This document shows positions 11,420 to 58,134 of a stretch of DNA of 59,315 nt, in pieces (position 1 is the stretch's first letter; every line of letters starts with the position of its first letter). Origin of the DNA: an uncultured virus (IMG/VR IMGVR_UViG_3300044678_003809). Lineage: Duplodnaviria > Heunggongvirae > Uroviricota > Caudoviricetes. Location: the IMG/VR virus record IMGVR_UViG_3300044678_003809; one strand, given 5' to 3'. The notes below the pieces were generated by a model, which was given only the letters and a program-made list of their open reading frames with translations, had not been told where the DNA came from and made no database searches. The translations under genes were made by a program, and so were the position numbers.

Positions 11420-13831
11420 ATGCCCCGCAAGCAGCCTCCCTCGCGCACGAAGCGTACGCGCCGGAATGCCGATCAGCCGGCAACCCCGCCGGTCGTCACC
11501 CCCACAGTCACCGAGAGCCCCACCGTGGCGCAGGTCATCAAGGCCGACGCCACGCCGGTAGCACCCACGGCCGCTCCGGCCCCCGGTGCGGCTCGGCCGA
11601 ATCGGGGGGCACCCCCCTCCCCCATCGAGACCGGCGCGGCTCAGGGGCGTTCCGGTCCTCGTGAGTCCCTCCGAACGCCGGTCGTCCTGCAGCACACGGC
11701 GCTGCAGGTCTATCGATCGCTCCGCAAGAAGATCGCGGACCCCAGCGAGCGCCGACAGCGGGCCTTCGCCATCGCTACGGCCTCCATGCAGAACGCCGGG
11801 GTCATGGTGCCCGGCAGCCGGCGGCTGACCCCGTATGGTCGGCGCATCGAGCGCGAGCACGTTCGCGAGGACCCCGAAGTCCTCGCCCGGAAGCTGCGCG
11901 CCTACGAGCGCATGCTCCGGGCCGGCGACTTCGATCGGGCAGTGGCTGAGGGCCGCATGAACGGGGCGTCTGCCGAGTGGTTCGTCACTCTCGAGGACAA
12001 CGGGGTGTGCGAGATCGAATCGCACTGGCCCGACGAGGCCCGAGCCAACGGTCACCGCGACCAGGTCGACGACTCGATCCGTCGGGGCGTGTGGCGGACG
12101 ATCAATGGCGGTTCACCCACAGCCGTCGTGCGCCACCGAAGCCACTTCGTCGGCCAGCCCCGCAACAACGGGGACGACCTCATCGCCAAGATCCGCGAGA
12201 CTGCCCAGAAGGCTGCCGACTTCCGTCTCCACGGCGCCATCGATCAGGCGAAGCACCTCGACGCGGAACTCGACCATCTCATGGCGAGGGCCGAGCGACT
12301 TGGGCAGCACGACGCGGCCGTCGAGGCCGAAGAGACGGGCCGAGAAGCCGCTCGTGGGCGTCGCAACGGCCAGGTCGAAGATGAGAGCACGGCGCCCCAG
12401 TGGATTCATCTCTCCCCCGACGTGGCCCAGATGGCGCAGCACTGGTGGTGGGGGCAGGGCGACCCTCTCTACGCCGTCGTGTCACGGCACTTCGCGGGAC
12501 TGTCCACCTGGGACGTCAGCGGCTCCCGAACGCTGATCCAGGCGACCCCCGACGAGATCGAGCGCCTGCAGCAAGTCGCGGCCGAGCAACTCGAGGCCGA
12601 AGGCTCGGACGAGGAGATGTCCGCTGCATACTCGGTCGTCCACGAGGGCGCGCTCTTCGACATCGGCGAGGGCCCCGAGCGCAGCAACGCGCATCGACCC
12701 AACGGCCGCCGTACCGCCGAGCGTCCGCCCGTTGCGGTGTCGGACCTGGTGCGGATGGGGCACGACCTGATGGCCGTGCTGCCGAACTGGAGTCCGGGGA
12801 ACGCGAGCGAGTCCGAGATTCGACGCCTGCACCGCCAGCACTTCCCCGCCCAGTACCGCGGGCAGCAGCCCTCGAGCCCCTCGCGCTCCAACGCGGGGGC
12901 CTGCATGAACCCCCAGCACCGTCGCAACGGATCTCACCAGGGCTCGGCGTGTCGCCCCTCGCGGATGAATGCCGCCGCCTGTGCGAACCCCCAGCACCGC
13001 CGCAACGGCTCTCACGCGGGGTCGTCGTGCGAGATGCCGCGCTCGAACGCCACGGGTTGGGCGTTCAAGCTCGACGTCGAGGCCATGGACGCCGCCCTGC
13101 TGCGGGTGGGCAACACGGCGGCCTCCGAGGTCACCGACTGGATGGTCGAGACCGCCAAGACGGGCGGTGCGCAGTCGGCTGCCCGGGTTCTCCTGCTGCG
13201 GGCCTACGATGGTCAGGAGCGGGACGTCCCGCAGGTCGTTCGGCTCCTCGAAAGCCACAACTACGACGAGGCCGTGGCCATCGCCGCGGGGACGCGGCAG
13301 AACGGTCGGTCCACGGGGCACCGCGAGATGCTCGAGGAGATCCGCCACCTCGCCGAGGAGACGGAGGTCGCCGAGGCCAACGGCTCGTACGGACTCGCCA
13401 GGCGTCTGCGGGGCACGCTCCACAGCCTGCTCGAGCAGGCCTCGATCTCGGGGTCGGAGGTCCGGTTCGAGGCCGACAAGGCGGTCGAGCGCGGGGTTCG
13501 TGCCGCGAAGCACCAAGTCGGCCGCGCCAACCCGACCGCGCTCCAGATGGCCGAGTGGGACGCCGCACACACGATGTCCGCCGAGCAGAACGAGCTGCTG
13601 AAGCGCATCTGGCAATGCGGCTACGACATGGCGAAGCCGGGAGCGCCCCGGTCCGCCGAGGCCCTCCGGCTCAACGAATTGGCCGGCGAACTGCGGGCCG
13701 CCGCCAAGCTGGCCAAGATCCCCGTCGCCTACATCGAGCAGGCCGAGGAAGATGGCTTCATGCGGGGGTGCGACTACTCCATGCCCCGCAGTAGCCGGTC
13801 CCGTCCCGCCCCGCGCCGCAAGCGCCGGTGA
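11420..13831 (+). CDS. Large modular protein punctuated by R-x-N-[G/A/P] motifs (putative polyprotein)
   Basis: GAGGA RBS before ATG 11420. 803 aa with more than 12 RxN[GAP] motifs between small helical modules. Confidence 0.75.
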   Translation: MPRKQPPSRTKRTRRNADQPATPPVVTPTVTESPTVAQVIKADATPVAPTAAPAPGAARPNRGAPPSPIETGAAQGRSGPRESLRTPVVLQHTALQVYRSLRKKIADPSERRQRAFAIATASMQNAGVMVPGSRRLTPYGRRIEREHVREDPEVLARKLRAYERMLRAGDFDRAVAEGRMNGASAEWFVTLEDNGVCEIESHWPDEARANGHRDQVDDSIRRGVWRTINGGSPTAVVRHRSHFVGQPRNNGDDLIAKIRETAQKAADFRLHGAIDQAKHLDAELDHLMARAERLGQHDAAVEAEETGREAARGRRNGQVEDESTAPQWIHLSPDVAQMAQHWWWGQGDPLYAVVSRHFAGLSTWDVSGSRTLIQATPDEIERLQQVAAEQLEAEGSDEEMSAAYSVVHEGALFDIGEGPERSNAHRPNGRRTAERPPVAVSDLVRMGHDLMAVLPNWSPGNASESEIRRLHRQHFPAQYRGQQPSSPSRSNAGACMNPQHRRNGSHQGSACRPSRMNAAACANPQHRRNGSHAGSSCEMPRSNATGWAFKLDVEAMDAALLRVGNTAASEVTDWMVETAKTGGAQSAARVLLLRAYDGQERDVPQVVRLLESHNYDEAVAIAAGTRQNGRSTGHREMLEEIRHLAEETEVAEANGSYGLARRLRGTLHSLLEQASISGSEVRFEADKAVERGVRAAKHQVGRANPTALQMAEWDAAHTMSAEQNELLKRIWQCGYDMAKPGAPRSAEALRLNELAGELRAAAKLAKIPVAYIEQAEEDGFMRGCDYSMPRSSRSRPAPRRKRR

Positions 13832-13868
13832 GCCGCAAGGTCCACCCGCAGGCCGCCTCCTGACCTTC

Positions 13869-14606
13869 TCAAGCCCCCGTCGTACAGAGCACCCCGCACT
13901 CGATGTCGGGCTCGTCCTCGAGCCTGCCCGCCAGGGGGTCCAGCTCGTCCAAGAACACCCGCACCCGCACCCCACGGACCTGCTTCGACAGGATGGCCAC
14001 GTTCAGGTCCCGCTCCTGTCGCGCCATCTTCTGGAAGATGTCGGGGAAGTCCCGCCGCACCTTGTTCCAGTAGCCCATCCCGCCCTTCACGCACCCGATG
14101 CAGTTGTTGTTCTTGTACCCGAGGCGGTACATCATCGGGAGCTGGATTCCAGCCTCGCGGACGATGCGGTGACAGTCGTCCTTGGTGAGGCCCTGCTCGA
14201 ACAGCGGGAACCGCGCGTTGATCTCCGGGTTCTCCTGATGGAAGCGCACGATGCGCACCCCCTCGTCGACCGTGTACCCGAAGATGTGCAGGTCGTCGAC
14301 CCGCTGGTACCGCTTGCGCACCACCTTCTTCAGCTCGGTGGTACAGCGCGCTCCCTTGGGGCCGACCAAGTAACGCGTCTTCTCGAAGACGTCGTAGATG
14401 TCTCGGTAGTCCGGGTTCTTGAGCACTTGGATGGGCTGGCCGACCCATCGTTCCACGTCGTGGAGGAAGCGGATGTTGTCCGGGTGCTCATACGCCAGCG
14501 TGTCGCAGTACAGCACCTCGACGCCCTGGTACTGCTCGACGGCGATGCGGGCCGCGACGGCCGACGCATCACCACAGGAGAACCAACTCAGGACTCGAGG
14601 TTCCAT
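13869..14606 (-). CDS. PAPS reductase-family (adenine nucleotide alpha hydrolase) protein
   Basis: SWFSCGDASAVA PP-loop-like, CTTELK, NNCIGC and terminal CGVLC. Confidence 0.85.
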   Translation of the reverse strand: MEPRVLSWFSCGDASAVAARIAVEQYQGVEVLYCDTLAYEHPDNIRFLHDVERWVGQPIQVLKNPDYRDIYDVFEKTRYLVGPKGARCTTELKKVVRKRYQRVDDLHIFGYTVDEGVRIVRFHQENPEINARFPLFEQGLTKDDCHRIVREAGIQLPMMYRLGYKNNNCIGCVKGGMGYWNKVRRDFPDIFQKMARQERDLNVAILSKQVRGVRVRVFLDELDPLAGRLEDEPDIECGVLCTTGA

Positions 14607-15154
14607 CAACTGCTCCAAGTCGTCGTATCCGAGAAGAACTGCAACTCCCTCTGCATACCACACCACTCCTCGTGGGTCATCTGCCGCCGGACCCCGAGAT
14701 GATGGGTAACGACCACAAGACTGTTTCGCGGGTGAGGCACGTAGGCGTGGAGATGGCGCCGCCGCAAGTAGAAAAACAGGGCCTCCGAGCCGCAGGTCGT
14801 CCCGTTGACGTTCGAGCCCAGGTACATCACCGTAGGCGCCCTCTGCAGCCACCGTTCGGTCTCGATGGGCCAATGGCGTGTGGGCCAACTGATCATGGCC
14901 ACGTCATAACGGAGCTTCCCGGGTCCATCTTCTATGTTCCGGCTGATTGGCGCCGTCTCGTGTTGGTCGACCTCAAGGACGGAAGTCGCGCCCGCTTCAC
15001 GAAGCTGGTTGGCCACGAACCCCGTCCCGCAGCCGAGGTCCAAAACGGTTTTTCCGGCGACCACCTGGGCCACCGTCTCCATCTGGAGGCCCGATTGGAT
15101 GATGCCCCACGAGCGCGTGGGCTCGAACAGTCGACCCCCGATCAACATGGCCAC
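14606..15154 (-). CDS. Class I SAM-dependent methyltransferase
   Basis: VLDLGCGTG motif I and YDVAMISWP. Confidence 0.75.
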   Translation of the reverse strand: MAMLIGGRLFEPTRSWGIIQSGLQMETVAQVVAGKTVLDLGCGTGFVANQLREAGATSVLEVDQHETAPISRNIEDGPGKLRYDVAMISWPTRHWPIETERWLQRAPTVMYLGSNVNGTTCGSEALFFYLRRRHLHAYVPHPRNSLVVVTHHLGVRRQMTHEEWCGMQRELQFFSDTTTWSS

Positions 15155-19836: not shown

Positions 19837-22566
19837 CTACTTGCCTTCCGGCGACTGCCCCGGGAGCACGAGGGCCCTCCGCTCGAGGAGGTAGTACATC
19901 CCCGTTTCTTTCCGACTGTGGGGCACATCGAGCAACTTCATGCGTCGGCCCCACTTTGTGCTCGTCATGGTCTTGTGGCCGTTCATGGCGGCCCACCGGC
20001 TGAAATCCTCGTACAGGGTCGCCGAGCTGAAAAGCCCCGTCGGATTCCCGGGCGTCGGCGGCCACACATACCGGGCGTGCAGCCAACTGGACACCTGGTC
20101 CGTCGACTCGCGCCACTCCTGCACGTTGGTGCGCATCGACGCGGTCTCGGTGTACGCATCGCGCTCAAGCAGACGTGCGGCCCCCCGCAGGGCCCATGAC
20201 AGGATGCTGCCCAACTCGGTGCCGATCACGCGATCGCTGAGGCGCTTGTCCTGCTCTGCGGTGCTGAACCGCCGGTCCCACGAGATGATCAGCCAGCGTC
20301 GGAAGAACCCGTCGGTCATGTCCGTGACCGCCGGCAGGTTGTTGGCGCTGAAAATGTGTCCCGCGACGGGCCGAAACGCGAAGGGTGCCTCGCGGATGTG
20401 GCGGCCGACGACCTGGTCGCCCGAGATCATTGCCTTGATGGCCTCACTGGCCAGGATGTCGCTCTCGGGCAGCTCGCTGACCATGTTGATCCGCGAGCCT
20501 GCGAGCATCGCGCGGCGGTACTCGTTGTCCATCTCCTGGGGAGGCACCGCGGTGACGGCGTTCTTCGGAAACAGGGCCGTGATGATGGTCTGGAACGTCG
20601 ACTTACCGTTCGCGCCGTGGCCGACGAGCATCAGGCCCTTCTGGTACTTCGTCGACATGCCCATGAGAGCTGCGCCGGTGAACTCCTGCAGTACCTTGAT
20701 CTTCTCTTCGCAGTCGGTGTCATCTCGAAAACACTGCCGCAGGTACTGCAGGAACAACTCCGGTGTCGCGTTCTCCTCTGCCCTGATCGGGAGGCCGAAG
20801 AGACAGTGGTGATGGGGGTCGTGGTCGATGACCACCACGCGCCCGTCTTGGACGGTGGCGAACCCGTTCTCGCAGGCGACTCCAGGGACCTGATCCTCGT
20901 AGAAACCCTGTGCTGATGCGGCCCGGCGTACGACGTTGGCCACGGCCTCGATCTTCGCGTTGCTCAACAGCAGTGGGCGGGGGTCGCCCTTCATCGTGAG
21001 CACGGGCTCGCCGTGAAGCGACATGATCAGGGCCTCGACCACGGCGTCTGGGACGCGTCGCCAGTAGCCAAGATCGGGGTGGTACCGCCAGAGGTCGCCG
21101 AGGTCGAACACCGTGATGTAGTTCTCGCGCTCCATCTCGACGAGAACGTGCTCGGCAATGTCTTGGTCGGAGTCACTCGCGAAGCGAGGGGCTGAGGTGG
21201 GCCCGGAGGCTTGGGTCATCCGGTTCACGAGCACGCCAATCCGACGAGGCCCCACCGGCAGACCGTGGTAGTCGATGGCCCACTTAGCGTCGAGCAGGAA
21301 GTCACCACGTCCGGCAGGCCCCGCAGCCCGGTTTTGGCGCATTGCAGCGGGCGCCGCTTTGGCTTCCGCAGCCTCTGCTGTCGCCATCTCCTTCAGTACG
21401 CGGTCTCGCGCCTCCCCGGGGACACGTAGAAGCGCCGTGAGAGGGCTGCTCTTCGCCGGGGACGGTGGCGGCGGTGCCGCTTCCGGCCCGGCCAATTCGT
21501 CCTCCAGCCGGGGTGTCGGAGTCTCTTCCGGCTCGTCGAATTCGTTCTCGGGCTTGGCGCCGCCCCCAAGCCTCGGGGTGGTCTGCGTAGCCTTCGTCGC
21601 TTGCTGCACCACGGTCGATGCAGACTCGACAACCCGCTGCCGCATCGCGTGGGCGACGGCTTGGTACGTCTGGGGGGGTGACCACGAGGTGGAGGACTCC
21701 ACCATGTGGACGATCTCTTCGTCGGGCAGTGGCGGTTCGCACTGCTGCTCGTTGGTCGTTCTCACCGCCGCCAAGATGGCCTCGGGGGTGAGCCCGTTCC
21801 GGTGCAGCGACCCCACCAGCCGCACCAACTCGCTGTTCCGGTTCTGGGTGATCTTGGCGGGGACCTTGTACTGCTGCCCCGTCGCCTTGACGGCGCCGAT
21901 GCCCGCAAATGCACCAGATCCCGTTTTTCGCGTGTCTTTTGACCCCCCCGTCGGCATCGACCAGTTCAGATTCCCGAGCCGACTGAAGTCCGTGAAAAGA
22001 CGTTGGTTTTTGCCTCCTCGAACGACTTTCGGCAGCCGATAGCTGCGTCCCCAGTCGACGAGTTCGTCGGCCTCGATACCGGCGCATCGCAGCTCGGCTC
22101 GGAAGGCCTTCGCGTAGGCCAGAAACGCGTCGATGCCCATCGGCTCGGACAGCCGCCACACGAGGCGGTACCCACCTCGCGAACGGTAGATTCCGGCCGT
22201 ACTCGCCCAGGGGAGCTTGGCGACGAGCGCCTGGTGCTCGGCGAACCACTCATCGCTCGCCGGCTCATTGCTCTTGTGGGCGACGGCGTTGTCCACGTCG
22301 ATGAACAGCGCGGTCATCTCGACTCTGAAGCCCTGCTCGCCGAGCGCCTTCAGCGAGTCCTTGCGCAGCCGCGCGATGGTCGTCGGATACTCACCGTCTG
22401 CGCCGACCAAGCGACCAGGCCAGCAGTGGGCGTCTGTGGTGTACTCGCCCTCCAGGGCTTCGAGCAGTCCTTTGACGGGACAGGGGGTCAACTCCTCCAA
22501 GTGCTCGAGCGTTCCGTCCCAGCCCCTAAGGTACGGTGATTCCCAGATCGTGACCTCCGGCGTCAT
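19837..22566 (-). CDS. Primase-helicase (primase-like N-terminus, PriCT-1, D5-like SF3 helicase)
   Basis: RNSELVRLVGSL...CEPPLPDEEI (PriCT-1), Walker A GHGANGKST, VSE, KAMISGD, FFRRW. Confidence 0.9.
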   Translation of the reverse strand: MTPEVTIWESPYLRGWDGTLEHLEELTPCPVKGLLEALEGEYTTDAHCWPGRLVGADGEYPTTIARLRKDSLKALGEQGFRVEMTALFIDVDNAVAHKSNEPASDEWFAEHQALVAKLPWASTAGIYRSRGGYRLVWRLSEPMGIDAFLAYAKAFRAELRCAGIEADELVDWGRSYRLPKVVRGGKNQRLFTDFSRLGNLNWSMPTGGSKDTRKTGSGAFAGIGAVKATGQQYKVPAKITQNRNSELVRLVGSLHRNGLTPEAILAAVRTTNEQQCEPPLPDEEIVHMVESSTSWSPPQTYQAVAHAMRQRVVESASTVVQQATKATQTTPRLGGGAKPENEFDEPEETPTPRLEDELAGPEAAPPPPSPAKSSPLTALLRVPGEARDRVLKEMATAEAAEAKAAPAAMRQNRAAGPAGRGDFLLDAKWAIDYHGLPVGPRRIGVLVNRMTQASGPTSAPRFASDSDQDIAEHVLVEMERENYITVFDLGDLWRYHPDLGYWRRVPDAVVEALIMSLHGEPVLTMKGDPRPLLLSNAKIEAVANVVRRAASAQGFYEDQVPGVACENGFATVQDGRVVVIDHDPHHHCLFGLPIRAEENATPELFLQYLRQCFRDDTDCEEKIKVLQEFTGAALMGMSTKYQKGLMLVGHGANGKSTFQTIITALFPKNAVTAVPPQEMDNEYRRAMLAGSRINMVSELPESDILASEAIKAMISGDQVVGRHIREAPFAFRPVAGHIFSANNLPAVTDMTDGFFRRWLIISWDRRFSTAEQDKRLSDRVIGTELGSILSWALRGAARLLERDAYTETASMRTNVQEWRESTDQVSSWLHARYVWPPTPGNPTGLFSSATLYEDFSRWAAMNGHKTMTSTKWGRRMKLLDVPHSRKETGMYYLLERRALVLPGQSPEGK

Positions 22567-36631: not shown

Positions 36632-36665
36632 CACTGCGTTATGGTTGCCGCGAATGGAGAGCACC

Positions 36666-39133: not shown

Positions 39134-39149
39134 GCGTCAGGAGCCCTCC

Positions 39150-40418: not shown

Positions 40419-40471
40419 CCTCTTCCCAAAGCGCGCGGCGGTGTGGATACTGGCCTCGAAAGAGGAAAGCC

Positions 40472-41533: not shown

Positions 41534-41541
41534 GGACGGCC

Positions 41542-43884: not shown

Positions 43885-43914
43885 CCGTAGATTGCATAAA
43901 GCACCCGTGGTAGC

Positions 43915-44424: not shown

Positions 44425-44849
44425 AACATCGCGGTCGGCGCCTCCGTCAGCGAGCCGGTCGTGTCGACGTGGCCGCCAAGTCGTTGCGCCGAATGGAAGT
44501 CGAGCTGGGTCGTTTGCTGAGACGGGGGTGCCTCGTCCTTCAGGAAGCCGACCACAACAGCGTCCATCTGTGGTTCAGCGGCCCGCTCGGAGAGCGTTGG
44601 GGCACTCGCCGGCTGAACGTCATGGTTTTCCTGGGGTACGACGATCGCCGACGTCGTTGGTTCGTGTCCGAGTTCGGCACACTCTCCTTTTTCGGAGAAA
44701 AGCCAACGTGGCGACCGACCCCCGGGCCCTTGCTGCGGTCCTGCTACGACCGTCTGATGGGCTACGGCTTCTTCGACCGGCAATTCACGTATCGGGCGTT
44801 CCGGCAGGCCGCTGGCATGCGGCTAGTCAGGCACGGGAGCACCGTGTAA
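44412..44849 (+). CDS. Basic hypothetical protein
   Basis: Overlaps the upstream ORF. Similar Arg-rich N-terminus. Confidence 0.5.
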   Translation: MRRLKHRGRRLRQRAGRVDVAAKSLRRMEVELGRLLRRGCLVLQEADHNSVHLWFSGPLGERWGTRRLNVMVFLGYDDRRRRWFVSEFGTLSFFGEKPTWRPTPGPLLRSCYDRLMGYGFFDRQFTYRAFRQAAGMRLVRHGSTV

Positions 44850-44882
44850 AGTCGCAGCATCTGAGCAACCCCCAGGTGCCCC

Positions 44883-46643: not shown

Positions 46644-46646
46644 TCC

Positions 46647-48749: not shown

Positions 48750-51538
48750 TCAGTGCAACCCCCAAGCTCAGGGACGACTACACCGAGGCCTTCCGCGAGT
48801 GGTTCGGCGACTCCGTGGTCATGGACGCCCAGGGCAACGCTCTCGTGGTCTACCACGGCACGAACGACGGCGGCTTCGTCGAGTTCAAGGGCACCGAAGG
48901 TCCACGCAGCGGCGGCGGGATCTTCTTCTCGAGTTCCTATGCGCTCGCCAGCAGCTACAAGCGCGGCCGGCGGGCGGACCCCACGCCACCCTGGGAGCCG
49001 GACGAGTACCTCGAGGGCGGCCAAGCGGGAGTCTACGAGGTCCACCTCCGCATCGAAGACCCCCTGATCATCGACGCGGGCGAGAGCAACTGGGACGCGA
49101 TCGAAGGCGAGACGACGAACCGTGACGGCGAGGCTGTCGGCTATTTCTTGGGGGCGACAGGATTCCTTGCCCTAGAAGCTCGCGAGATGGGCTTCGACGG
49201 CGTCATCATCCGCAACGTCAGCGACTACGGGGCCTACGGGGACGGGCTGCCCGCGGACGTCTACGTCGTGTTCGACCCCAACCAGATCAAGTCGGTGAAG
49301 CACAACATGGGCACTTTCAGCCGCACGTCCAATGACATCCGAAAGAACGGCCTCGCGAACGAGTTCCCTCGCGACCTGGCCGAGCAGGTCCGGCGGCAGT
49401 ACCCGCGCCTGTGGGCGAAGCATGGCACCGGCGGCAACCCACCGACGGCGTGGACGGGGGACGACGCCTACCGGGCGTGGGGGTGGCTCATCGATCTGCG
49501 CGAGGGACGTCACCCGCCGACGTCCGAGATCCCGGCTGCGAAGCGCGCCTACGAGCTGCTGACGGGGCAGAGGTGGTCAGGACCCACGGACGACCTCTTC
49601 CGGGCCGTCACGCGCCTCTGGGAGGCCAGGCGGGAGCGGTACGTGTCCCGCCACGCGAAGGACTTCCGCCCCGGGGGCACCATCGCGATGATCAAGTGGG
49701 GGGGCATCTTCCCCTGGGCCGAAGCCGCCGCTCCTGGCCAGGGTCACCGACCCATGCTCGAGGCCCTCGGCGCGCCGCGGTCGAACCCCGGATGGGATGG
49801 AGCGCGACCCGTCGAGTACGAGAGCACTCCACCCCGTTCGCCACGGTCCGCTGCCTTCCGCAAGTGGTTCGGGGCGTCGAAGATCGTGGACCACCGTGGG
49901 CGTCCGTTGGTCGTCTACCACGGGACACCACGCCGATTTGAGGCATTCGAGGAGCAGTACATCGGTCGCAACGACGAGGGGTGCGGAGGCCGCGGTTTCT
50001 ATTTCATGGGAGGGGCAGAGTATCCTTCGGGGTATGCTCAGTTCGGGGCCGACGAGGGGGACAACCCCATCGTGATGGCCGTCTATCTCAGGATGGAGCA
50101 TCCATTGCGCGTCGATGACTACGCGCAGATCCCAGGGTGGACGCCGGCTGTTCTGGGGGATCGAGAGGCTGCTCTCGCGGTTCAGCAACACCTTCGGGCC
50201 CTCGGATACGATGGTGTCATTCAGGACCACGAGAACCCACACTACATCGAGTACGTAGTTTTCGACCCCACCCAAGTCAAGTCCGTCAACAACATGGGCA
50301 AGTGGTCTCCGATGGACCCCCGCCTGAGGTACAACCCGTCTGCCCGTGCTCCGGGCCACCGACCCATGCTCGAGGCCCTCGGCGCGCCGCGGTCGAACGG
50401 CGCGGTGCTCATGTACCGGGGCACTCACGGCACGGACCCCAACGCCACGCAGCTCAAGACCCCGTCTTTCACGCCCTGCCTCGACGCGGCGACGATCTAC
50501 TCGGCCATCCCTGGGGATGAGTGGGGGCGCCGAGCGCCGAGCTTCTTGGAGACCTCCACCGTCCACGCGGCGTTCATTGACGCGTCGCCGGTTCTGCGGC
50601 TGGGGGGCAACGAGCCCCAGGCCAACTTGGGAGACGTGCTGCGCGACCTGAAATTCGGCCAGCCCGAAGGCATCTCGCGCGACGAGGTCGTGCGCATCTA
50701 CAACTACCTGCACAACCGGACGCTGGGCCGGACCCCCGGGGGGACGTTCAAGTACCAGGTCTTCGACGATGAAGGGACGCTGCTTGACCTCGAGGACGAC
50801 GACGTCGTGCCGTTCTCGATCAGCAGACCGCAGACCATCTTCAGCGTGTTTCGGGAGTCGTTCGATTTCTCACGAGACAACGAGATCTTGGTGGAAGCCA
50901 GTGGTCTCGTCGCCGACGCCTTCGTCTTTGCGGACACACCCGCCGTGGTGAGGGCGGCCCAGCGGCTCGGCTTCCGCGGCATCTCCTACATGGACGTCTT
51001 CGAGGGCGCCGAGGCCGCCGCACCCGTGTTGCTGTTGTGCGAGGCCGAGGACATCGACTGCATCGAGGAGTTGCAGGACCTCGAGGGCGATCTCGTGCTC
51101 TGCCACGAAACGCTGAGGCCACTCCCCGGGGCCGAGGTGAGCTACGTCTGGCATCGCCCGGCGGCGTCTCTCATGGAGAACCCACCGCCCCCGCCCGAGG
51201 ACCTCGCCGCGCGAGACAATCCAGAAGGAAGCAGTCCCCTGCTCGTCCCGCGAGACTTCTCCACGAGGTACTACCCCGACTTCCCGCCGGAGACGTGGAG
51301 CCACAAGGAGGTCGAAGACCTGCTCGGACACAGCATCGAGTGCGGCTACACCGCCCCGTTCTTCGTCGAGAACGTGCCCGACCGGGGGCCCATCGAGGTC
51401 AACGTCTGGGGCGGCGAGATGCAGGACTACTTCAACACTTGGCGCGCGACGCCCCAGCACGGCGGTTACCTCGTCGAGGGCCCGCACGCCCTTGAGCAGG
51501 CACCTGCGAGGCAGCGCGGGACCGAGCCCAGGCCATGA
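48746..51538 (+). CDS. Five-module polyvalent protein (ART, unknown, ART, ART-like, small domain)
   Basis: Two YHGT ART-PolyVal domains and an MYRGT module. Junctions RKNG, RSNP, RYNP/RSNG and RDNP. Confidence 0.85.
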   Translation: MISATPKLRDDYTEAFREWFGDSVVMDAQGNALVVYHGTNDGGFVEFKGTEGPRSGGGIFFSSSYALASSYKRGRRADPTPPWEPDEYLEGGQAGVYEVHLRIEDPLIIDAGESNWDAIEGETTNRDGEAVGYFLGATGFLALEAREMGFDGVIIRNVSDYGAYGDGLPADVYVVFDPNQIKSVKHNMGTFSRTSNDIRKNGLANEFPRDLAEQVRRQYPRLWAKHGTGGNPPTAWTGDDAYRAWGWLIDLREGRHPPTSEIPAAKRAYELLTGQRWSGPTDDLFRAVTRLWEARRERYVSRHAKDFRPGGTIAMIKWGGIFPWAEAAAPGQGHRPMLEALGAPRSNPGWDGARPVEYESTPPRSPRSAAFRKWFGASKIVDHRGRPLVVYHGTPRRFEAFEEQYIGRNDEGCGGRGFYFMGGAEYPSGYAQFGADEGDNPIVMAVYLRMEHPLRVDDYAQIPGWTPAVLGDREAALAVQQHLRALGYDGVIQDHENPHYIEYVVFDPTQVKSVNNMGKWSPMDPRLRYNPSARAPGHRPMLEALGAPRSNGAVLMYRGTHGTDPNATQLKTPSFTPCLDAATIYSAIPGDEWGRRAPSFLETSTVHAAFIDASPVLRLGGNEPQANLGDVLRDLKFGQPEGISRDEVVRIYNYLHNRTLGRTPGGTFKYQVFDDEGTLLDLEDDDVVPFSISRPQTIFSVFRESFDFSRDNEILVEASGLVADAFVFADTPAVVRAAQRLGFRGISYMDVFEGAEAAAPVLLLCEAEDIDCIEELQDLEGDLVLCHETLRPLPGAEVSYVWHRPAASLMENPPPPPEDLAARDNPEGSSPLLVPRDFSTRYYPDFPPETWSHKEVEDLLGHSIECGYTAPFFVENVPDRGPIEVNVWGGEMQDYFNTWRATPQHGGYLVEGPHALEQAPARQRGTEPRP
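49745..50398 (+). repeat. Perfect 42-bp direct repeat (49745-49786 and 50357-50398)
   Basis: caccgacccatgctcgaggccctcggcgcgccgcggtcgaac twice, flanking one ART module. Confidence 0.9.
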
Positions 51539-53250
51539 AGGTACGGCGACTGACGGACACCCACTTGGCAATCGTCCGCAAGGCCGAAGTGGACATCGTG
51601 GACGCGATCAATCACGCGCAGTCGATGCTGGATCGGCCCATGGACGTGGAGTGGTCGATCGACGACTTCGACATCGACGTCCTCTACGAGAAAACCGTTT
51701 CCTGGGTGCTCGGCCAAGAGGACTCGGGCTCTTGGCTGGAGATTGACCCGCGTGACTTTGAGGGACTCGATGAGTCGGCGCGCCTTGACGAGTTGGTCTC
51801 TTTCCGGGGTGACGATTGGCGGGCCGTGGCCGAGAGTTGGCTGACGGTGGGCATCCCCCCCGTGGTGATCATCGAAGAGCCAGGAGCCGAAGGCTTCGAT
51901 GCTGTGACCCCCAGCGCGTACCTGATCGGGGACGGCCGGGGTCGACTCCAATTCGCGCTGGCGATGGGGATCTCGGAGGTGTCTGTTATCCGTCTGACGT
52001 GGAAACGCCCTCAGGTGGCTTCCGACGCACCACCCGTTTGGCATCCCGAGGAGTGGCAGTGGGAAGAGATGGTCACCAGTTTCACCGCCTACTTCGGGGA
52101 CTCGAAAACGTATTCGCGAGAGACGCCTCTCGTGGCCGACTTGGAGCACATGGGGCTCGTGTCGGCTTTCTCGGAATGCGGCAAAGTGGGGCACATGCTG
52201 CATGAGGCGGGCGGTGGTTGCTACGAACACATCACGGAACTGATCCGCGCGCTGGAGGCCCAGGAACCACTGCCCCCTATCGTCGTCGAAGAGTGCTCGG
52301 GCAGACTTGTCGTCGTGGACGGCAACCACCGCGTGGCGGCTGCGCTGGCTGTCGGGCTACGGCATGTGCCGGCTGTCCTGCGAAAACAACCCCCGCGCCC
52401 GAACGGCTCTCTCGTGGACTTCTACCCACAGACGGCCCGGGGGCAACTCCCTGTGGGCCCGCGGGACCGCGTCTTCGACGCTGCCGGGATCGGCTTCGTG
52501 GGACCGGCGGACGGCACCATGGTGCCCGTGGCCGTGGATAACCTCGAGGCCATGCCCGAGAACATCTGGACCCAGGAGAAGATCGACGTGCTCGTCGAGG
52601 CAGCGCAACGGGGTCTCTACCCGCGGGTGTACCCGGGGTACGCCGACCTGTGGGCCGAGGATGGCGAGGTTCATGCACAAGTTCGAGATGGGAACCACCG
52701 CACCTTCGCCGCAGTCGAAGCGGGCGCCGAGTTCGTCTGGGTCCTGATGTCCGACAACACTCGTCAGCACATCGACGAGCGGAAGGCCCCCGAGGCCCTC
52801 TACCGCGCGATCCGCCGTGCGCAGGTCGAGCATGGAGCGCCTCTACTCCAGCGGCAGCGGGTTCGTGTTCGGCGGACCCCAGCAGTCGTCCGTCTGCTCG
52901 CTGCGGAGGCGGAACGACTGCGTCTCCAGCGGGCTCGGGAGCAGGTGGCGCTTGAGCAACTCGACTGGCTCGGGCCGGTCGAAGACACCGGGTGGACCCC
53001 TGCAGAGCAGCGCCAGCGACCGGACTTGTTCCTTCGTCTCCGGTTGCATGAGTTGCGGGAGCGCCAAGGGCGCGCGGCCTTGTTGGAGATGTTGGAGGAA
53101 CCCGTGTGGCAGGCGTTGGCGTCCCGAGACCGGGAGGTTTCCTCGGCACTACAAGCACTCGACATCTACGACCTGCGCAAGGCCGCAGGCTTGAACCCGG
53201 CCCGGGAGCGACTTGACCCCGTCACCGGCCAGGTCGTGCGGGCATCGTGA
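51535..53250 (+). CDS. Protein with three ParB/sulfiredoxin-like domains
   Basis: IPPVVI..IGDGRGR, LPPIVV..VDGNHR and VRDGNHR. Confidence 0.75.
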   Translation: MKVRRLTDTHLAIVRKAEVDIVDAINHAQSMLDRPMDVEWSIDDFDIDVLYEKTVSWVLGQEDSGSWLEIDPRDFEGLDESARLDELVSFRGDDWRAVAESWLTVGIPPVVIIEEPGAEGFDAVTPSAYLIGDGRGRLQFALAMGISEVSVIRLTWKRPQVASDAPPVWHPEEWQWEEMVTSFTAYFGDSKTYSRETPLVADLEHMGLVSAFSECGKVGHMLHEAGGGCYEHITELIRALEAQEPLPPIVVEECSGRLVVVDGNHRVAAALAVGLRHVPAVLRKQPPRPNGSLVDFYPQTARGQLPVGPRDRVFDAAGIGFVGPADGTMVPVAVDNLEAMPENIWTQEKIDVLVEAAQRGLYPRVYPGYADLWAEDGEVHAQVRDGNHRTFAAVEAGAEFVWVLMSDNTRQHIDERKAPEALYRAIRRAQVEHGAPLLQRQRVRVRRTPAVVRLLAAEAERLRLQRAREQVALEQLDWLGPVEDTGWTPAEQRQRPDLFLRLRLHELRERQGRAALLEMLEEPVWQALASRDREVSSALQALDIYDLRKAAGLNPARERLDPVTGQVVRAS

Positions 53251-53266
53251 CCCCCGCACGGGGATG

Positions 53267-53295
53267 TTGCACTCCCCAGATACCAAGCGTATGTT
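53267..53295 (+). promoter_or_regulatory. Sigma70-like promoter
   Basis: TTGCAC-N17-TATGTT upstream of the GT/FkbM pair. Confidence 0.45.
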
Positions 53296-53354
53296 GCATA
53301 AGGCACGGGTGGTCCGTGCCTTCCCAAGCAGCGTTCATCCCCTGAGTGTGACAC

Positions 53355-54071
53355 ATGAACCAAGACGGAGAACTGGTGCATGCCCCCCCACGGGCCATCA
53401 CACTGACGGCCTTCAACCGCCCGGCCTATCTGCGTGAAGTGCTCGCGAGCTTGCGGGCCAACAATCATCTGGACCAGTTCCATCTGCACATCGCCTTGGA
53501 GCCGGGATGTTCTGCAACGCTCGAGGTGTGCCGGGCCATCGACTTCATTCCGACGACCATCCATCAGAACGTGTCGCTTCTCGGGGTGCGGGGCAACCCG
53601 TATCGACTGCTCCAACAGGTGTTCGCAGCCGGGTACGACAGCGTCGTCTACTGCGAAGATGACGTCGTTCTCAGCCCGGACGCCATCGATCTGTCGCTCT
53701 GGTACTTGAATCATGGCACGCTGCCTCACGAGACCCGGTGTCTCTGCCTTCACAACGGAGCCAGCACCGTGCAACAGAACCCGGGTGTTGTGGGCACACA
53801 CCCCATTTCCGACTTTGCGTCGCTGGGGTTTGTCACTACCCGATTCCAGTGGGAGACCTTCTTTCAGAAACGGTGGCATGCACATGCTGGAGGGTGGGAT
53901 TGGGGTATCACCTCGGGCGCAGGCTATATCGCGGCCCCGAAAGTCTCCAGGTCCCACCACATCGGTCGTTTCGGGGGTACACACTACGTCGCCGCTGACC
54001 ATGACCGTATCTACGCGGACAACTACAGGCACCCCACGGGGACGCCGGAGGGCGGGTATCATGCAGAGTAG
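53355..54071 (+). CDS. GT-A fold glycosyltransferase
   Basis: AFNRPAYL, CEDD, WD and SRSHHIG. Confidence 0.8.
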   Translation: MNQDGELVHAPPRAITLTAFNRPAYLREVLASLRANNHLDQFHLHIALEPGCSATLEVCRAIDFIPTTIHQNVSLLGVRGNPYRLLQQVFAAGYDSVVYCEDDVVLSPDAIDLSLWYLNHGTLPHETRCLCLHNGASTVQQNPGVVGTHPISDFASLGFVTTRFQWETFFQKRWHAHAGGWDWGITSGAGYIAAPKVSRSHHIGRFGGTHYVAADHDRIYADNYRHPTGTPEGGYHAE

Positions 54072-54738
54072 TACGGTGCGACAGGCTTTTTCGTACGGTG
54101 ATGACGACCATGTGTTCACGGTCCGGCCAGACACCATTGACACTCGGGTCGTCAATGAAGTGTTCGTGGGGGACGAGTACGGCATCGGGCCCTTGATTCG
54201 TGCCGGGGATGTCGTGTTGGACGTCGGAGCGCACATTGGCAGCTTCACGGCGCGGGCGACGCTGAAAAACGATGTTCGCGTATTCTCTGTGGAGCCTGCG
54301 TTCTTCAATCTGCCACTGCTCTTGGCCAACATCCCGAGGGGCCGGAAGATCACCGTGTTCAACAACGCGCTGGGTGGGGCCGACGGCTTGCCCGTGATCG
54401 TCCGTGACACCCGCGGGGAGAACACGGGTGGTAACGAGTGCCACGGGGCATCCCCGTCCGAGATCCCAGTCCACACCCTGCGGCTGGTCACGTTGGCGAA
54501 GATGTGTGGTGTGTCGGCGTTCGACATCGTGAAGTTGGACTGCGAGGGTGGTGAGCACGCGTTGTTCGACGACGCCGCGTCCGCGAGTCTGCTGGCGCGC
54601 TCGAGGTACGTCGCCATGGAGGTGCATGGACGCGCGGACCGGGGCATCGCGTGGGCTCGTGAGCACTTCCGCTATGTCGACGTCTCCTGGTACTCCCCCG
54701 ATGTGGCATTGGTGAAGGCCCACAACCCGCGGGACTGA
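54061..54738 (+). CDS. FkbM-family methyltransferase
   Basis: VLDVGAHIGSF, VEP and KLDCEGGE. Confidence 0.9.
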   Translation: MQSSTVRQAFSYGDDDHVFTVRPDTIDTRVVNEVFVGDEYGIGPLIRAGDVVLDVGAHIGSFTARATLKNDVRVFSVEPAFFNLPLLLANIPRGRKITVFNNALGGADGLPVIVRDTRGENTGGNECHGASPSEIPVHTLRLVTLAKMCGVSAFDIVKLDCEGGEHALFDDAASASLLARSRYVAMEVHGRADRGIAWAREHFRYVDVSWYSPDVALVKAHNPRD

Positions 54739-54775
54739 CCGTCCACGGTTGCCTTTCCCTCGCCCGGGAGGCAAC

Positions 54776-56587
54776 ATGCGGGGCATGAAGAAGCTCACCC
54801 GCCCCCACACTGCCGTACTGCCCAGTCCGAAGGTCATCGTCGCTCATCGTGGCCTTGGCCCCCACCTGCATTCGGCCACGACCGACAGTACCGGGGGGCC
54901 ACGGGCGAACCGACCGCATGTCGACCTGCTCCAAGGGGGGCGTGCGGACAAGAACCGGCCGCGGGACTTCAACCGCGGGCAACTGCAGGCCGGCAGTCAT
55001 GTGGAGCGGGAGCACACGCGCAACCGGACAGTCGCTCAAGAGATCGCCATGGACCACTTGGCCGAGGACCCCGACTACTACCGGCGCCTCGCCGCGTTCG
55101 AGCGTCGGAACCCCGTCCTGGGGCCCGTACAGCCCGTCCTCCCCGGGCTCCCCGAGGTGTGGGGCACCGAGGACGTGGGGCTGGCCCAGCGGTGGCAGGA
55201 GGCGACCCCTGAGGCGCTGCAGCAGGCTGTGGAACAGCGTCTGGTCTTCGAGGACGAGTTCGCGGAGATGGAGGCGCTCGTCGAGGACGCTCAGTACCGC
55301 GGCGTCCCCGAGGCGGCCGAGCGCCACGGCGTCTCCCTGGGACTGGCGGACGCCCTGGTCGCCGGGCTCTATGACCACCTCGTGGCGCTCGCCGAGGCGA
55401 AGAGCGAGGCGCTGGTCGAACAGTTCGTCGATTTCTTCCGTCAGTACGCACAGCGTGAGATCGAGTACCGGAAGAATGACGCCGACGAATACTACGTCGA
55501 TAACTTCCTGCAGGACCCGTCTCCGCTGACGTACCGTCGATACGCGAAGGCGCTCTACGAAGAGGTTCAGGAGGCGTTCCGAGAGGCACATCCCGACGCG
55601 CCGGAATTGACGATTGACCTCTTGATGGAAGTGCTCGAGGACCCCGACCTGTACAACGTGGTGGTCACTGATCGAGGTGATCGAAAGCCGGCGCTCGCGG
55701 TGGACCAGTTCCAAGAAAATGAGAACGACCTCGAATTTGAGTGGGGACCGCGAGTGGATGAGTCATTCCGCGTGTTGGTCGAGTCCATGACCGACGCCGA
55801 GGTCCAAGAGGCGCTCGAAGCCCTCGTGAACCATGACCCGTACATCCAATTCAAGCCCTGGCCCCGGACACGCGTGATCGACCGGTCGTTCTTCCTCACA
55901 GAAGAATCCTCAACGGTTCTGTTCGATCTTGACTTAACCGTCTACTGGGTGGCGAACATGGAGCGCGTGCTGACCGCTCTGGACGGTCGGTGGCGAGAGG
56001 CCGACGCCCCTGCCGGACCATCGAAGGCGGACGAGGTCGTCTACCAGTACGGCGGCACGAACGACACGGTCGCGGGGGCCTCGGCGCGCGGCATGTACGT
56101 GGCCCGGCTGCGACCCGAGCAACTCCGTCAGGAGGGCATCGACCTGGGGATCTGCGTGGGCCGCCAGGACATGGGCTACCGGGACCAGGTCATCGACGGC
56201 ACCATCAACATCTACTCGATCCGCACCGAGGCCGGGCGCCCCAAGTTCACGATCAGCGTCTACCGCCGCCCGCTGCAGGTGTCGCAGGTCAAGGGCAAGG
56301 CGAACCGACTGCCGGGGTTCGCCGCCGCGGGCACCGTGTTCTCGAAGGAGGACGAGGTCCGCTTGGTCGTCGAGTTCCTGATGCACCTCGACATCCCGCC
56401 CGATGAGATCGAACGCGTCTTCGACCTCAAGGCGGGCCTCGCGGGGCTCCGCGCGCTCGGGCAGGACCCCTTCACGCCCAAGCCCGTGCGCGCCGCGCGA
56501 CCCCGGGACAACGGCAGCGATCGTGAGGTCGCCTACTGGGCCAAGAAGGCCTACAGCATCCCGATGGGTGGGAAGTGGGGCATCTGA
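54776..56587 (+). CDS. Polyvalent protein: DUF5661-like module, acidic domain and PcfJ-like domain
   Basis: G..VEREHT....A.EIAMDHL.EDPDYY, and LRQEG..LGICVG...QVKGKAN. Junctions RRNP and RDNG. Confidence 0.8.
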   Translation: MRGMKKLTRPHTAVLPSPKVIVAHRGLGPHLHSATTDSTGGPRANRPHVDLLQGGRADKNRPRDFNRGQLQAGSHVEREHTRNRTVAQEIAMDHLAEDPDYYRRLAAFERRNPVLGPVQPVLPGLPEVWGTEDVGLAQRWQEATPEALQQAVEQRLVFEDEFAEMEALVEDAQYRGVPEAAERHGVSLGLADALVAGLYDHLVALAEAKSEALVEQFVDFFRQYAQREIEYRKNDADEYYVDNFLQDPSPLTYRRYAKALYEEVQEAFREAHPDAPELTIDLLMEVLEDPDLYNVVVTDRGDRKPALAVDQFQENENDLEFEWGPRVDESFRVLVESMTDAEVQEALEALVNHDPYIQFKPWPRTRVIDRSFFLTEESSTVLFDLDLTVYWVANMERVLTALDGRWREADAPAGPSKADEVVYQYGGTNDTVAGASARGMYVARLRPEQLRQEGIDLGICVGRQDMGYRDQVIDGTINIYSIRTEAGRPKFTISVYRRPLQVSQVKGKANRLPGFAAAGTVFSKEDEVRLVVEFLMHLDIPPDEIERVFDLKAGLAGLRALGQDPFTPKPVRAARPRDNGSDREVAYWAKKAYSIPMGGKWGI

Positions 56588-58134
56588 TGAAGACGATCCG
56601 AGATCGCATCCTCGCGGCCGACGAGACCTTGCGAGCGCGGGACATCCTGTTGCCGGAGGCCACGCGGTGTCTGCCGGACGTCATCGCGCGCCCCTTCGGG
56701 GCCATGACCATCAAGTGGCTCGACAACCGGACCTGGGGGCAGTCGTTCGAGTTGGGCGCCAAGGTGGTGCATCTCGGCAACCGCCGCGGGGACCACTTGG
56801 CCACCCACCCGCACCTGTACGGGGTCGAGGCGAAAGAGGCTGAGCGCATTCTGCGCGCCCAGGTCGGGGGTACGCTGGTTCACGAGCTGGGGCACGCGCT
56901 GGTCGAGTCGCTGCCGAAAGAGGTGCAGCAGACCGTGCTTTCGGTGGCCGACAGCCTCTGCCGGCGAGACGGGATGTCGACCTACGGCTACAACATGCCC
57001 CACAAGCCGAACGACCCGTACGCCCAGGCGCACGAGTGCCTCGCGGAGGCCTTCCGCTACTGGTGCCACGCCGACGAGCGCCTGCGCCAGCAGTACCCTG
57101 GCTGGCACCAGCTCGTGGACGCGATGATGGAGCACGTCGCGCAGCCCCCGTGGGGGCAGTCGCCGAGCGCGCGCTCGAACCCGAAAGAGGCCTCCGAGTC
57201 CTCGAAGGGACCGAGCCCGCAGTTGTACGAGCGGTTCGCCGCGAAGGGTGCCCCCCGGCCCGGGGAAAGGGGCTATCGGGAGGTGTCCCCCGAGCGGGCG
57301 GCGGCCGAGGAGACCGCGAGCACCGCGATGCGGTACTGGACCGACGCCGAGATGGGGTGGCATGTCCTGCACGCGAGTCGGATGGCCCACGACGTCGCGC
57401 ACCTGTTCGAGGACGAGGCCCCCGACGAGCCGATGCTCGAGGCGGAAGATCTCCCGGGCCTGCTCGGGCAGCCGCTGTGGAGCCCCATGCAGGCGGGCGG
57501 GTTCATCGAGGCCGTGGGGGTGATGAAGGAGCAGTTCATGCCGGACGCGCTGGTCCGAGAGGTGCTCGCCGACGCCGTCCACCCCGCTGGCAAGCTGCGG
57601 CTGGTGAACGTCCCCAAGGACGAGGCCGTGGCGTTCATCAACCGCCACCACAGTCAGATGCCGATCGCCAACCCCCGCGGGCTCATGTACGCCATCGGGG
57701 CCATGAAGGGCAGCCGCTTGGTCGCCGTGGCGACTGCCGGCAGCCCCACGGGGCGCTGGGGCAGCGATCGTGTGGAGGTCCGCAACATCCTCGAGTTGAC
57801 GCGGATCGCCTCCGACGGGACGACGCTGGGGGCCTCGAGCTTCCTGGCGTCGCGGCTGATCGACCTGCTCGACAAGTCCAAGCGCGGTGACGAGACCGGC
57901 CCCGCGCTGTTCGTCACGTACAGCCTCACGAGCGAGGATGGGACCACCTACCGGGCCCTGCGTGACAAGGGCCTGCGGCCCGTGGCGCTCATCCGCGGCA
58001 AGTCCGCGGGCGGGGGCGGCGCGCGGGCTGGGAACCAGCTCGGTTACGCCGAGCCCGACAAGATCCGCTGGGAGGCCGGGGCCGCCGCGCTGCCCGCGCA
58101 GTGGGACTTGCTGGCCACCCCGGGCGGTACTTGA
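56587..58134 (+). CDS. Zincin-like metallopeptidase fused to an XF1762/Mom-like acetyltransferase domain
   Basis: HELGH...ECLAEAF, and FINRHH..GRW..LELTR..FVTY. RSNP lies just after the peptidase domain. Confidence 0.7.
   Translation: MKTIRDRILAADETLRARDILLPEATRCLPDVIARPFGAMTIKWLDNRTWGQSFELGAKVVHLGNRRGDHLATHPHLYGVEAKEAERILRAQVGGTLVHELGHALVESLPKEVQQTVLSVADSLCRRDGMSTYGYNMPHKPNDPYAQAHECLAEAFRYWCHADERLRQQYPGWHQLVDAMMEHVAQPPWGQSPSARSNPKEASESSKGPSPQLYERFAAKGAPRPGERGYREVSPERAAAEETASTAMRYWTDAEMGWHVLHASRMAHDVAHLFEDEAPDEPMLEAEDLPGLLGQPLWSPMQAGGFIEAVGVMKEQFMPDALVREVLADAVHPAGKLRLVNVPKDEAVAFINRHHSQMPIANPRGLMYAIGAMKGSRLVAVATAGSPTGRWGSDRVEVRNILELTRIASDGTTLGASSFLASRLIDLLDKSKRGDETGPALFVTYSLTSEDGTTYRALRDKGLRPVALIRGKSAGGGGARAGNQLGYAEPDKIRWEAGAAALPAQWDLLATPGGT

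Follow-up and report, generated by a model that had tools for sequence, protein, structure and literature searches.

Head proteases of the assemblin fold recognize short sites, L/I-x-E for gp21 of T4, S/A/G-x-E for gp175 of phiKZ, and V/L-x-A, cut before Ser, for the herpesvirus enzyme. The T4 head protease uses its short motif on many substrates, and the T4 internal proteins carry short N-terminal leaders that end in the cleavage signal. For SPN3US, the available part of the published account describes a head protease with many substrates and an A-x-E type motif. For the multi-domain chains of phages and conjugative elements known as polyvalent proteins, processing by a zincin and delivery with the DNA have been proposed (Iyer, Burroughs, Anand, de Souza and Aravind, 2017, PMC5512222, available part of the text). 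Here, we describe a peptide motif, R-x-N followed by Pro or Gly, and less often by Ala, Ser or Thr, at the joints between protein modules in a stretch of DNA from an uncultured tailed phage (IMG/VR record IMGVR_UViG_3300044678_003809; 59,315 nucleotides, called the window below). We suggest that this motif is most likely a processing signal.

The motif is found mainly in an array of translationally coupled open reading frames (ORFs, named here by their first nucleotide) at 36645-58134 on the plus strand. The domains of the array are ART-PolyVal (six or more Pfam matches), PcfJ (two), NUDIX, ParB_N, DUF5661 and a Mom-like module, together with an HExxH domain and many modules without assignment. 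Thus, several unrelated enzymatic or DNA-binding domains share a chain, which is the hallmark of phage-type polyvalent proteins, and the repertoire (ART-PolyVal, PcfJ, ParB-like, NUDIX, zincin, DUF5661) is the one given for them in the accessible sections of PMC5512222. The same sections assign processing to the zincin, whereas the motif described here spans proteins with different peptidase domains or none and is restricted to some lineages. The domain calls of a first-pass annotation, made from the DNA sequence without database searches, stood for ART, NUDIX, ParB, PcfJ, DUF5661 and the HExxH peptidase; its methyltransferase at 42027-42680 and its second ParB domain in ORF 51535 have no Pfam match.

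The translations of 33 candidate ORFs contain 33 R-x-N-[P/G] motifs, where residue shuffles predict 5.1. The first-pass annotation had counted about 29 of these by hand in nine ORFs, and translation returned the same number: nine in ORF 11420-13831, five in ORF 48746, four in ORF 44883, three each in ORFs 36645 and 46647, two in ORF 54749, and one each in ORFs 42027, 51535 and 56575. All 18 motif positions that it had quoted, from 38622 to 57172, were reproduced, and the primase, helicase and PolA (909, 714 and 693 residues) contain no motif, as it had said. The enrichment over shuffled controls that it had proposed as a check was also obtained, with 29 motifs in 11 array ORFs (6810 residues) where 2.5 are expected (standard deviation 1.5), and none of 200 shuffles reached 29. 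Shuffling in blocks of 8, 12 or 20 residues, which preserves the local composition of the linkers, gave means of 3.6, 3.2 and 2.8, and the highest counts among 500 runs were 11, 9 and 9. Because both whole-ORF and local shuffles stay far below 29, composition is ruled out as the cause of the enrichment.

The enrichment is specific to the pattern. With Pro, Gly, Ala, Ser or Thr after the Asn, the 11 array ORFs have 38 motifs against 5.9 expected; with any other residue there are 6 against 9.9. Sister patterns in the array ORFs are at expectation (RxD[PG], 8 against 6.1; RxQ[PG], 3 against 3.2; KxN[PG], 0 against 0.7; NxR, 16 against 16.2), and R-x-N accounts for 44 of the 177 Asn residues of these ORFs, about a quarter. 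The 23 other ORFs (9814 residues) contain 4 R-x-N-[P/G] motifs against 3.0 expected, neither enriched nor depleted. The first-pass annotation had also observed that the codons vary, and we find CGG, CGC, CGT, CGA and AGG for Arg and AAC and AAT for Asn. The x residue has at least 14 identities. Only the Arg, the Asn and the following Pro or Gly are fixed; the position ahead of the Arg mildly favours Pro, Ala or Gly, and those past the motif mildly favour small residues. These features indicate that the motif is a signal at the protein level. With 29 sites and 12 variant ones, R-x-N has the form of a short P3-x-P1 signal common to many proteins, at leaders and joints, as is typical of the substrates of head-maturation proteases.

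The motif lies at the borders of domains, as had been noted in the first-pass annotation, and this is seen in the ends of Pfam matches, in the breakpoints of homology, in the starts of free-standing homologues and in structure models. DUF5661 ends at the RRN site of ORF 54749, NUDIX starts nine residues past the RPN-G of ORF 42027, and ParB_N ends four residues before the RPNG of ORF 51535. None of 16 sites in five polyvalent proteins from unrelated lineages (P0004, P0067, P0068, P0069 and P0071) is inside a Pfam envelope. BLAST homology breaks at the motifs, with matches to residues 3-202 and 208-361 of ORF 46647 and a break at residue 549 of ORF 48746, and the homology of ORF 40472 to other ART modules stops at residue 206. 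The Mom-like module of ORF 56575 has 40 partial homologues, and all of their alignments begin at residue 199 or later; 25 of them start at residues 199-218, where the site occupies 200-203, 15 start further inside, and several are free-standing proteins. Module 2 of ORF 44883 is matched end to end by HMMER to free-standing proteins of 116-121 residues, all four of which project onto residues 163-290 (starts at 163-172), between the sites at 159-162 and 290-293. Similarly, the projected start is at residues 400-425 for 53 of the 63 free-standing homologues that module 4 has, the RPNP being at 404-407. Division of the enzyme-bearing ORFs at the sites yields modules that are mostly of 105-317 residues, with two PcfJ-containing modules of 467 and 530 residues and a few short pieces.

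Two of the ORFs were modelled with AlphaFold2, and the predicted local distance difference test (pLDDT) is below 50 at all five motifs in them, four in ORF 44883 and one in ORF 56575, as the overlay suggested in the first-pass annotation would require. The model of ORF 44883 has a mean pLDDT of 81 and falls below 50 at residues 145-161, 285-290 and 397-408, which are the four motif places; there is one more internal low segment, at 82-106, without a motif. Foldseek found no match to this model at E ≤ 0.001. The best domain-level rows were a sulfiredoxin (probability 0.96) and an Osa protein (probability 0.94), which agree only weakly with a ParB/Srx fold for module 4.

The layouts of the array ORFs, all on the plus strand, are as follows. 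ORF 36645-38678 (677 residues) has a 117-residue module, RHNP (36987-36998), 15 residues, RCNP (37032-37043), a 530-residue module with PcfJ (Pfam, residues 534-602), RQNP (38622-38633) and a 15-residue tail. The next two enzyme ORFs have variant sites only. ORF 39150-40418 (422 residues) contains an ART-PolyVal domain, RANT (39951), RHNA (39996) and a weak second ART, and ORF 40472-41533 (353 residues) contains an ART-PolyVal domain, RSNR (41081), RRNA (41099) and a 141-residue module. In ORF 42027-43577 (516 residues), a 218-residue module is followed by RSNS (42672), a 161-residue module, RPNG (43155-43166) and NUDIX. ORF 44883-46643 (586 residues) consists of module 1, RSNP (45333-45344, within the low-pLDDT segment 145-161), RTNG (45357-45368, residues 159-162), module 2, RSNP (45750-45761, residues 290-293, at segment 285-290), a helical module 3, RPNP (46092-46103, residues 404-407, within segment 397-408) and the ParB/Srx-like module 4.

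ORF 46647-48749 (700 residues) has an ART, RHNP (47244-47255), a second ART, RHNG (47718-47729), a 181-residue module, RWNP (48261-48272) and a 159-residue module. The longest of the chains, ORF 48746-51538 (930 residues), reads ART, RKNG (49340-49351), 146 residues, RSNP (49778-49789), ART, RYNP (50327-50338), a 21-residue linker, RSNG (50390-50401), 274 residues, RDNP (51212-51223) and 105 residues. ORF 51535-53250 (571 residues) joins a module with ParB_N through RPNG (52396-52407) to a 281-residue module that shares a DGNHR motif with the first and has no Pfam match. ORF 54749-56587 (612 residues) has a leader, RANR (54902), DUF5661, RRNP (55103-55114), a 467-residue module with PcfJ, RDNG (56504-56515) and a 24-residue tail. 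Finally, ORF 56575-58134 (519 residues) has a zincin-like domain with HELGH (an HExxH sequence, 56881-56895, residue 103), which is a candidate processing enzyme, then RSNP (57172-57183, residues 200-203, within the low-pLDDT segment 187-214) and the Mom-like module of the acyltransferase fold.

Comparison with relatives shows that the motif is kept while its surroundings change. At 14 of 16 aligned joints between window ORFs and their relatives, the Arg, the Asn and the class of the following residue (Pro, Gly, Ala, Ser or Thr) are retained, while x and the flanks differ, as in PWGQSPSA RSNP KEASESSK and PWGHTPPG RPNP AGGPTAEK. Both exceptions are alignments forced across non-homologous modules. 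Furthermore, modules are gained and lost exactly at the motif: a 148-residue module is inserted in P0003 relative to P0002 between RKN-A and RSN-G, P0064 is without module 2, and ORF 48746 carries one additional ART module, flanked on either side by a copy of the linker GHRPMLEALGAPRSN. Short leaders ending in the motif are also found. The protein at 6069-7562 of locus L001 has 25 residues, then RSN-P and then the PcfJ module of ORF 54749; P0068 starts with MAKRRTPR and RRN-P; and P0022, P0041 and P0054 have such leaders as well, some of these being single-module relatives. The alignments thus indicate that the motif is strongly selected and is a seam for module exchange. An N-terminal peptide, MKKL(T/S)R...VLP(S/T), is shared by ORF 44883 (from its second Met; 44946-45000), ORF 54749 (54776-54830) and an L001 paralogue (6090-6150), and it may serve all three as a leader or a loading tag.

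The densest series of sites is in ORF 11420-13831 (plus strand; 803 residues, 12% Arg), with nine RxN[PG] and six RxN[A/R] sites. The former are RMNG (11954-11965), RANG (12041-12052), RNNG (12161-12172), RRNG (12359-12370), RPNG (12695-12706), RRNG (12920-12931), RRNG (12998-13009), RQNG (13295-13306) and RANP (13523-13534), and the variants are RRNA (11459), RPNR (11594), RSNA (12680), RSNA (12884), RMNA (12962) and RSNA (13040). The protein begins with a 13-residue leader, MPRKQPPSRTKRT, followed by RRN-A, and the pieces between the 15 sites are 5-120 residues long, with some sites only 12-14 residues apart. No Pfam, PHROG or Atlas relative was found for it. The start assumed in the first-pass annotation, ATG 11420, has GAGGA 7 nt upstream and was retained in preference to ATG 11057; the longest ORF, from ATG 11057, overlaps a real gene at 10617-11408, whose third-position GC is higher there. 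At 12893-13048, there are two units of about 26 residues, each with two Cys 16 apart around RRNG and flanked by R(S/M)N-A. There is no DNA tandem repeat under the repeated peptide units of this ORF.

The motif is restricted to some lineages. It is kept in the close relatives P0002-P0004, P0017, P0063 and P0064, while the distant ART-PolyVal proteins P0006-P0015 have zero or one site and an ART tail that reads ..DIRFS or ..NIYES instead. An alignment of the Mom-like module fetched 54 metagenome loci, 19 IMG/VR loci and 13 loci from metagenome-assembled genomes (MAGs), the window's own contig not being among them. Since the ORFs of these loci were called by a crude longest-ORF rule, the counts are approximate, and a locus was scored positive at a Poisson p < 0.01. 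Enrichment was found in 4 of the 54 metagenome loci (L001, L024, L026 and L050), in one of the 19 IMG/VR loci (L069, the same phage type as L026), and in none of the 13 MAG loci holding a Mom-like relative. The independent positives come from separate 50%-identity clusters, and their flanks are unrelated. In P0069, RxNP marks each of the four joints that separate DUF5872, module 2, GNAT, ART and the ParB-like end; P0067 has five motifs and P0065 has three. Loci L058 and L063, with p about 0.02-0.03 and sites that are not clearly at joints, were left out of the positives, and P0070, whose 22 RVNG are in a 200-residue tandem repeat, was excluded as an unrelated protein of repeats.

Other searches for relatives returned little. 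No IMG/VR relatives were found through the window's polyvalent proteins, P0005, P0003 or the module-2 alignment, and module 2 was not found in GTDB genomes. Among 50,697 phage records, tblastn gave only distant matches of cultured relatives, for PolA (best 29% identity), ORF 46647 and ORF 44883, with a single match for the latter, to module 4.

Several observations were made in the course of the locus survey. The 468-residue protein at L076:748-2151 (the same as L026:394-1797) has a protamine-like N-terminus (14% Arg) with RRN[G/T/A] about every 20 residues, and continues with a hydrophobic stretch and GYGELEVMS repeats; four genes downstream, there is an 889-residue Lys/Arg-rich ORF with five RxN[PG] and three RxN[S/T]. 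The MAGs with Mom-like relatives (L077-L089) are titled Myxococcota (Nannocystis, Myxococcales), Alphaproteobacteria and Planctomycetota, which is a weak pointer to the host range of the gene family, and some of these loci, on contigs of 0.2-2 Mb, are probably prophages. In lineages mostly without RxN[PG], a different sequence, Q[LM]x[LF][FLW], is present at 8 of 39 distinct joints, against 0.17 expected from shuffling. Its forms include QLDLF, QLELF, QLALF and QMRLF, located 29-46 residues before the Mom-like module (L055, L057, L040, L045, P0018, P0026, P0032 and P0035). It resembles the beta-clamp-binding peptide, QL[SD]LF, and by this analogy it would aim the DNA-modifying module at the replisome.

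What is the function of the R-x-N motif? A signal at nearly every joint, at the ends of leaders and in a dense series in an Arg-rich protein is the signature of a polyprotein cut site. We propose that the ORFs at 36645-58134 and ORF 11420-13831 would be polyproteins of domain-sized modules joined by short disordered linkers that bear the signal. A lineage-specific protease would read Arg at P3 and Asn at P1 and cut the chains into single-domain proteins. A head-maturation protease would be the most likely enzyme; in this case, the chains would travel as capsid cargo, with cleavage in the prohead and injection alongside the DNA, and ORF 11420 would encode an internal or scaffold-like protein that is broken down to small basic peptides. 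We favour processing of R-x-N-jointed capsid cargo by a head protease over the action of the array's own zincin, although we hold this tentatively, at slightly less than even confidence. The preference arises because of the P3-x-P1 layout, the restriction to lineages, which is what a co-evolving head protease predicts, and the indication, given below, of a shared enzyme encoded elsewhere.

The proposed scheme is like the head-maturation systems of T4 (gp21 with IPI-III, Alt, gp22 and gp23), phiKZ and SPN3US (gp175 and gp245, with inner-body and ejection proteins) in that a short P3-x-P1 signal is present on many substrates, some leaders end in the signal, some proteins have many sites, and the cargo includes anti-host proteins such as the ADP-ribosyltransferase Alt. 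It is unlike them in that their sites end in Glu, whereas the present signal ends in Asn, has Arg at P3 and is often followed by Pro, and in that single proteins are trimmed there whereas whole enzymes are chained here. There is also a likeness to the polyproteins of eukaryotic RNA viruses, for example those cut by picornavirus 3C at Q-G/S, with one chain, a fixed short signal at domain borders and a small residue after it. However, those viruses need a polyprotein to obtain many products per message, and a phage has no such need; the reason for the phage chains is likely co-delivery.

Several results weigh against a head protease acting on packaged chains. No capsid, scaffold, portal or head-protease gene was found with Pfam and PHROG in the 59-kb window, and the 10 kb past its 3' end, as seen in the 98%-identical relative L001, has no head gene, only a sigma-factor-like match. 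A motif-positive contig of 54 kb, G001, estimated to be 35% complete, gave no Phage_capsid match, and no head, portal, terminase or protease match in PHROG (30 ORFs) or Pfam (25 ORFs). The array follows the replication genes, in their orientation, and is not part of a head module. Pro comes right after Asn at about half of the sites, and most endopeptidases do not cut X-Pro bonds; with Pro so frequent there, the scissile bond may not be that between Asn and the next residue. The motif is not depleted in the other ORFs of the window, a comparison of low statistical power. Some sites are only 5-24 residues from the C-terminus (ORF 36645, ORF 54749 and P0017), where a cut would achieve little. 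Finally, a giant ORF of 2506 residues in G001 has only two RxN[PG], or four with Ser and Thr variants, so that not every joint is marked.

The same cut signal might instead be read by the zincin-like domain of ORF 56575, which would cut its own RSN-P in cis and the products of the other ORFs in trans, either in the cytoplasm or once injected. The HExxH domain heads the last ORF of the array, and the RSNP follows it 90 residues later in a segment with pLDDT below 50. P0036 has the same layout (zincin, RQNP, an unassigned module, RPNP, Mom-like), and in P0067 an RRNP is followed by a C-terminal SprT-like zincin. Recognition by zincins commonly involves the residue that follows the cut, and a cut before the Arg would avoid the X-Pro problem. 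This explanation is also that proposed for polyvalent proteins in general, as far as the available text of Iyer et al. (2017, PMC5512222) goes, although the same text says that polyvalent proteins without the motif carry such zincins too. The domain itself has HELGH and weak Pfam zincin matches only (E 0.13-0.24), its look-alikes in the Atlas include ATLF/M90 clusters, a PDB sequence search gave one row at chance level, and the AlphaFold2 model has pLDDT 41-63. A modelled complex of residues 1-192 with a 40-residue linker of ORF 48746 (score 0.00, mark 0.32) speaks neither for nor against binding. The zincins that adjoin the motif do not form a family: the window domain has just two detectable relatives, both close, and its likeness to those of P0036 and P0067 is confined to the HExxH helix. 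A zincin domain is thus present within the set of proteins to be processed, but no single peptidase family travels with the motif, since the adjoining domain is a HELGH zincin in the window, SprT-like in P0067 and C39 in P0004, and P0065, P0068, P0069 and P0071 have the motif and no peptidase domain. Differing or absent peptidases among the motif-positive proteins point to a shared enzyme encoded elsewhere, and we consider processing by the array zincin unlikely.

The motif may also not be cut at all. If RxN[PG] were a short linear motif that is bound or modified, it could serve as a dock for capsid loading, be bound by a host hub protein, or offer its Arg as an acceptor to the ADP-ribosyltransferases of the same proteins; the disordered linkers are where docking motifs are found, the Arg never varies, and there are many ART domains. 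Linkers of this kind do carry binding motifs, since the Q[LM]x[LF][FLW] seen at 8 of 39 joints of related linkers in other lineages looks like a clamp-binding peptide. Yet one dock per protein would be enough, and nearly every joint is marked whatever domain flanks it, ORF 11420 has 15 sites, some 12-14 residues apart, and cut sites would account better for leaders with the motif at their end and for the exchange of modules precisely at it, which makes docking or modification doubtful. We think it quite improbable that the motif has no biochemical role and is a favoured linker turn or cap, or a scar of cassette shuffling. Asn-Pro and Asn-Gly often form turns, a few linkers are simple duplications, with GHRPMLEALGAPRSN and SPEDPRMRHN each present twice, and the Arg after ART domains is ancestral, the distant homologues reading ..DIRFS. 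However, most flanks are unrelated and x has at least 14 identities, the related patterns are not enriched, and the motif is kept while linkers diverge, recurs with unrelated flanks in separate 50%-identity clusters, and is missing in most relatives with equally GC-rich DNA. The linkers might, lastly, break or age on their own, the Asn side chain attacking its own bond in Asn-Pro or deamidating in Asn-Gly, as a slow enzyme-free separation or a timer. Cleavage between Asn and Pro occurs in YscU and in reovirus mu1, and deamidation is blocked when Pro follows Asn, so that cleavage is the only route left, while Asn-Gly mostly deamidates rather than breaks. Self-cleavage at Asn is established in viral coat proteins and in YscU, and bond breakage at Asn would be common to the present motif and the asparagine peptide lyases (MEROPS N families; Rawlings, 2011, PMC3207474, part of the text). 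In the cases covered by that part of PMC3207474, cleavage takes place in cis within a folded catalytic domain with partner residues, whereas the present signal is linear, requires an Arg for which self-cleavage has no role, and is in segments of pLDDT below 50 between domains. We therefore regard self-breaking linkers as very improbable. A 2A-like ribosome skip was considered and dropped, because it is not, to our knowledge, known on bacterial ribosomes.

The phage context of the window comes from its tail fibres, primase and PolA. The DNA is GC-rich (about 65%), and its proteins are on record as part of a contig of about 121 kb. The order begins with collagen-like tail fibres (292-5062), followed by a glycosyltransferase and then by three consecutive proteins at 7862-9712, 9794-10612 and 10617-11408, which have a similar C-terminal hydrophobic anchor (..GLVVGIMAAAAGAYYLTQG). 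The first two have PG_binding_1 matches; RRN-A directly precedes the anchor of the first, and the second has RDN-G at residue 50. These anchor-ended proteins may be lysis or envelope proteins. The primase (19837-22566) is in a minus-strand block, and the helicase, exonuclease and PolA are in a plus-strand block after it. Within the array, the small ORF 38666-39133 has no RxN and has a sub-threshold match to cREC_REC, a cyclic-phosphate receiver domain (E 1.8e-4, 22.5 bits, with a cut-off of 27). Two PAPS-reductase-like genes, a glycosyltransferase, an FkbM-type methyltransferase and the Mom-like module (13869-14888, minus; 25732-26853, 53355-54738 and 57181-58131, plus) suggest DNA hypermodification.

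Processing of polyvalent proteins was already proposed in 2017, and the R-x-N junction motif most likely reflects a new protease specificity in a system of this known kind. The signal was not found in the part of the text of Iyer et al. (PMC5512222) that was available, supplements excluded, and full-text searches on prohead-protease motifs, phage polyproteins and ejection proteins, cleavage of polyvalent proteins, and asparagine peptide lyases returned no description of it. It is possible, although distinctly less than probable, that the motif is the code of an undescribed phage protease specificity, with Arg at P3, Asn at P1 and Pro tolerated or preferred at P1', used by a clade of uncultured GC-rich phages. 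Such phages would package their anti-host enzymes in the capsid as chains, separate these into individual enzymes and break an Arg-rich protein down to peptides that resemble protamine. A code so short and portable would allow modules to be exchanged at it, and the array would be a plug-in library of injected effectors.

If R-x-N is a cut site, the borders of modules can be read straight from the sequence, and the prediction of 2017 that polyvalent proteins are processed becomes directly testable. About 20 modules of the window longer than 100 residues, without significant Pfam matches, would then be candidate anti-defence enzymes that can be expressed alone, and an Asn-specific enzyme that tolerates X-Pro would be added to the small set of phage maturation specificities. 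Even if uncut, it is a linear motif under strong selection.

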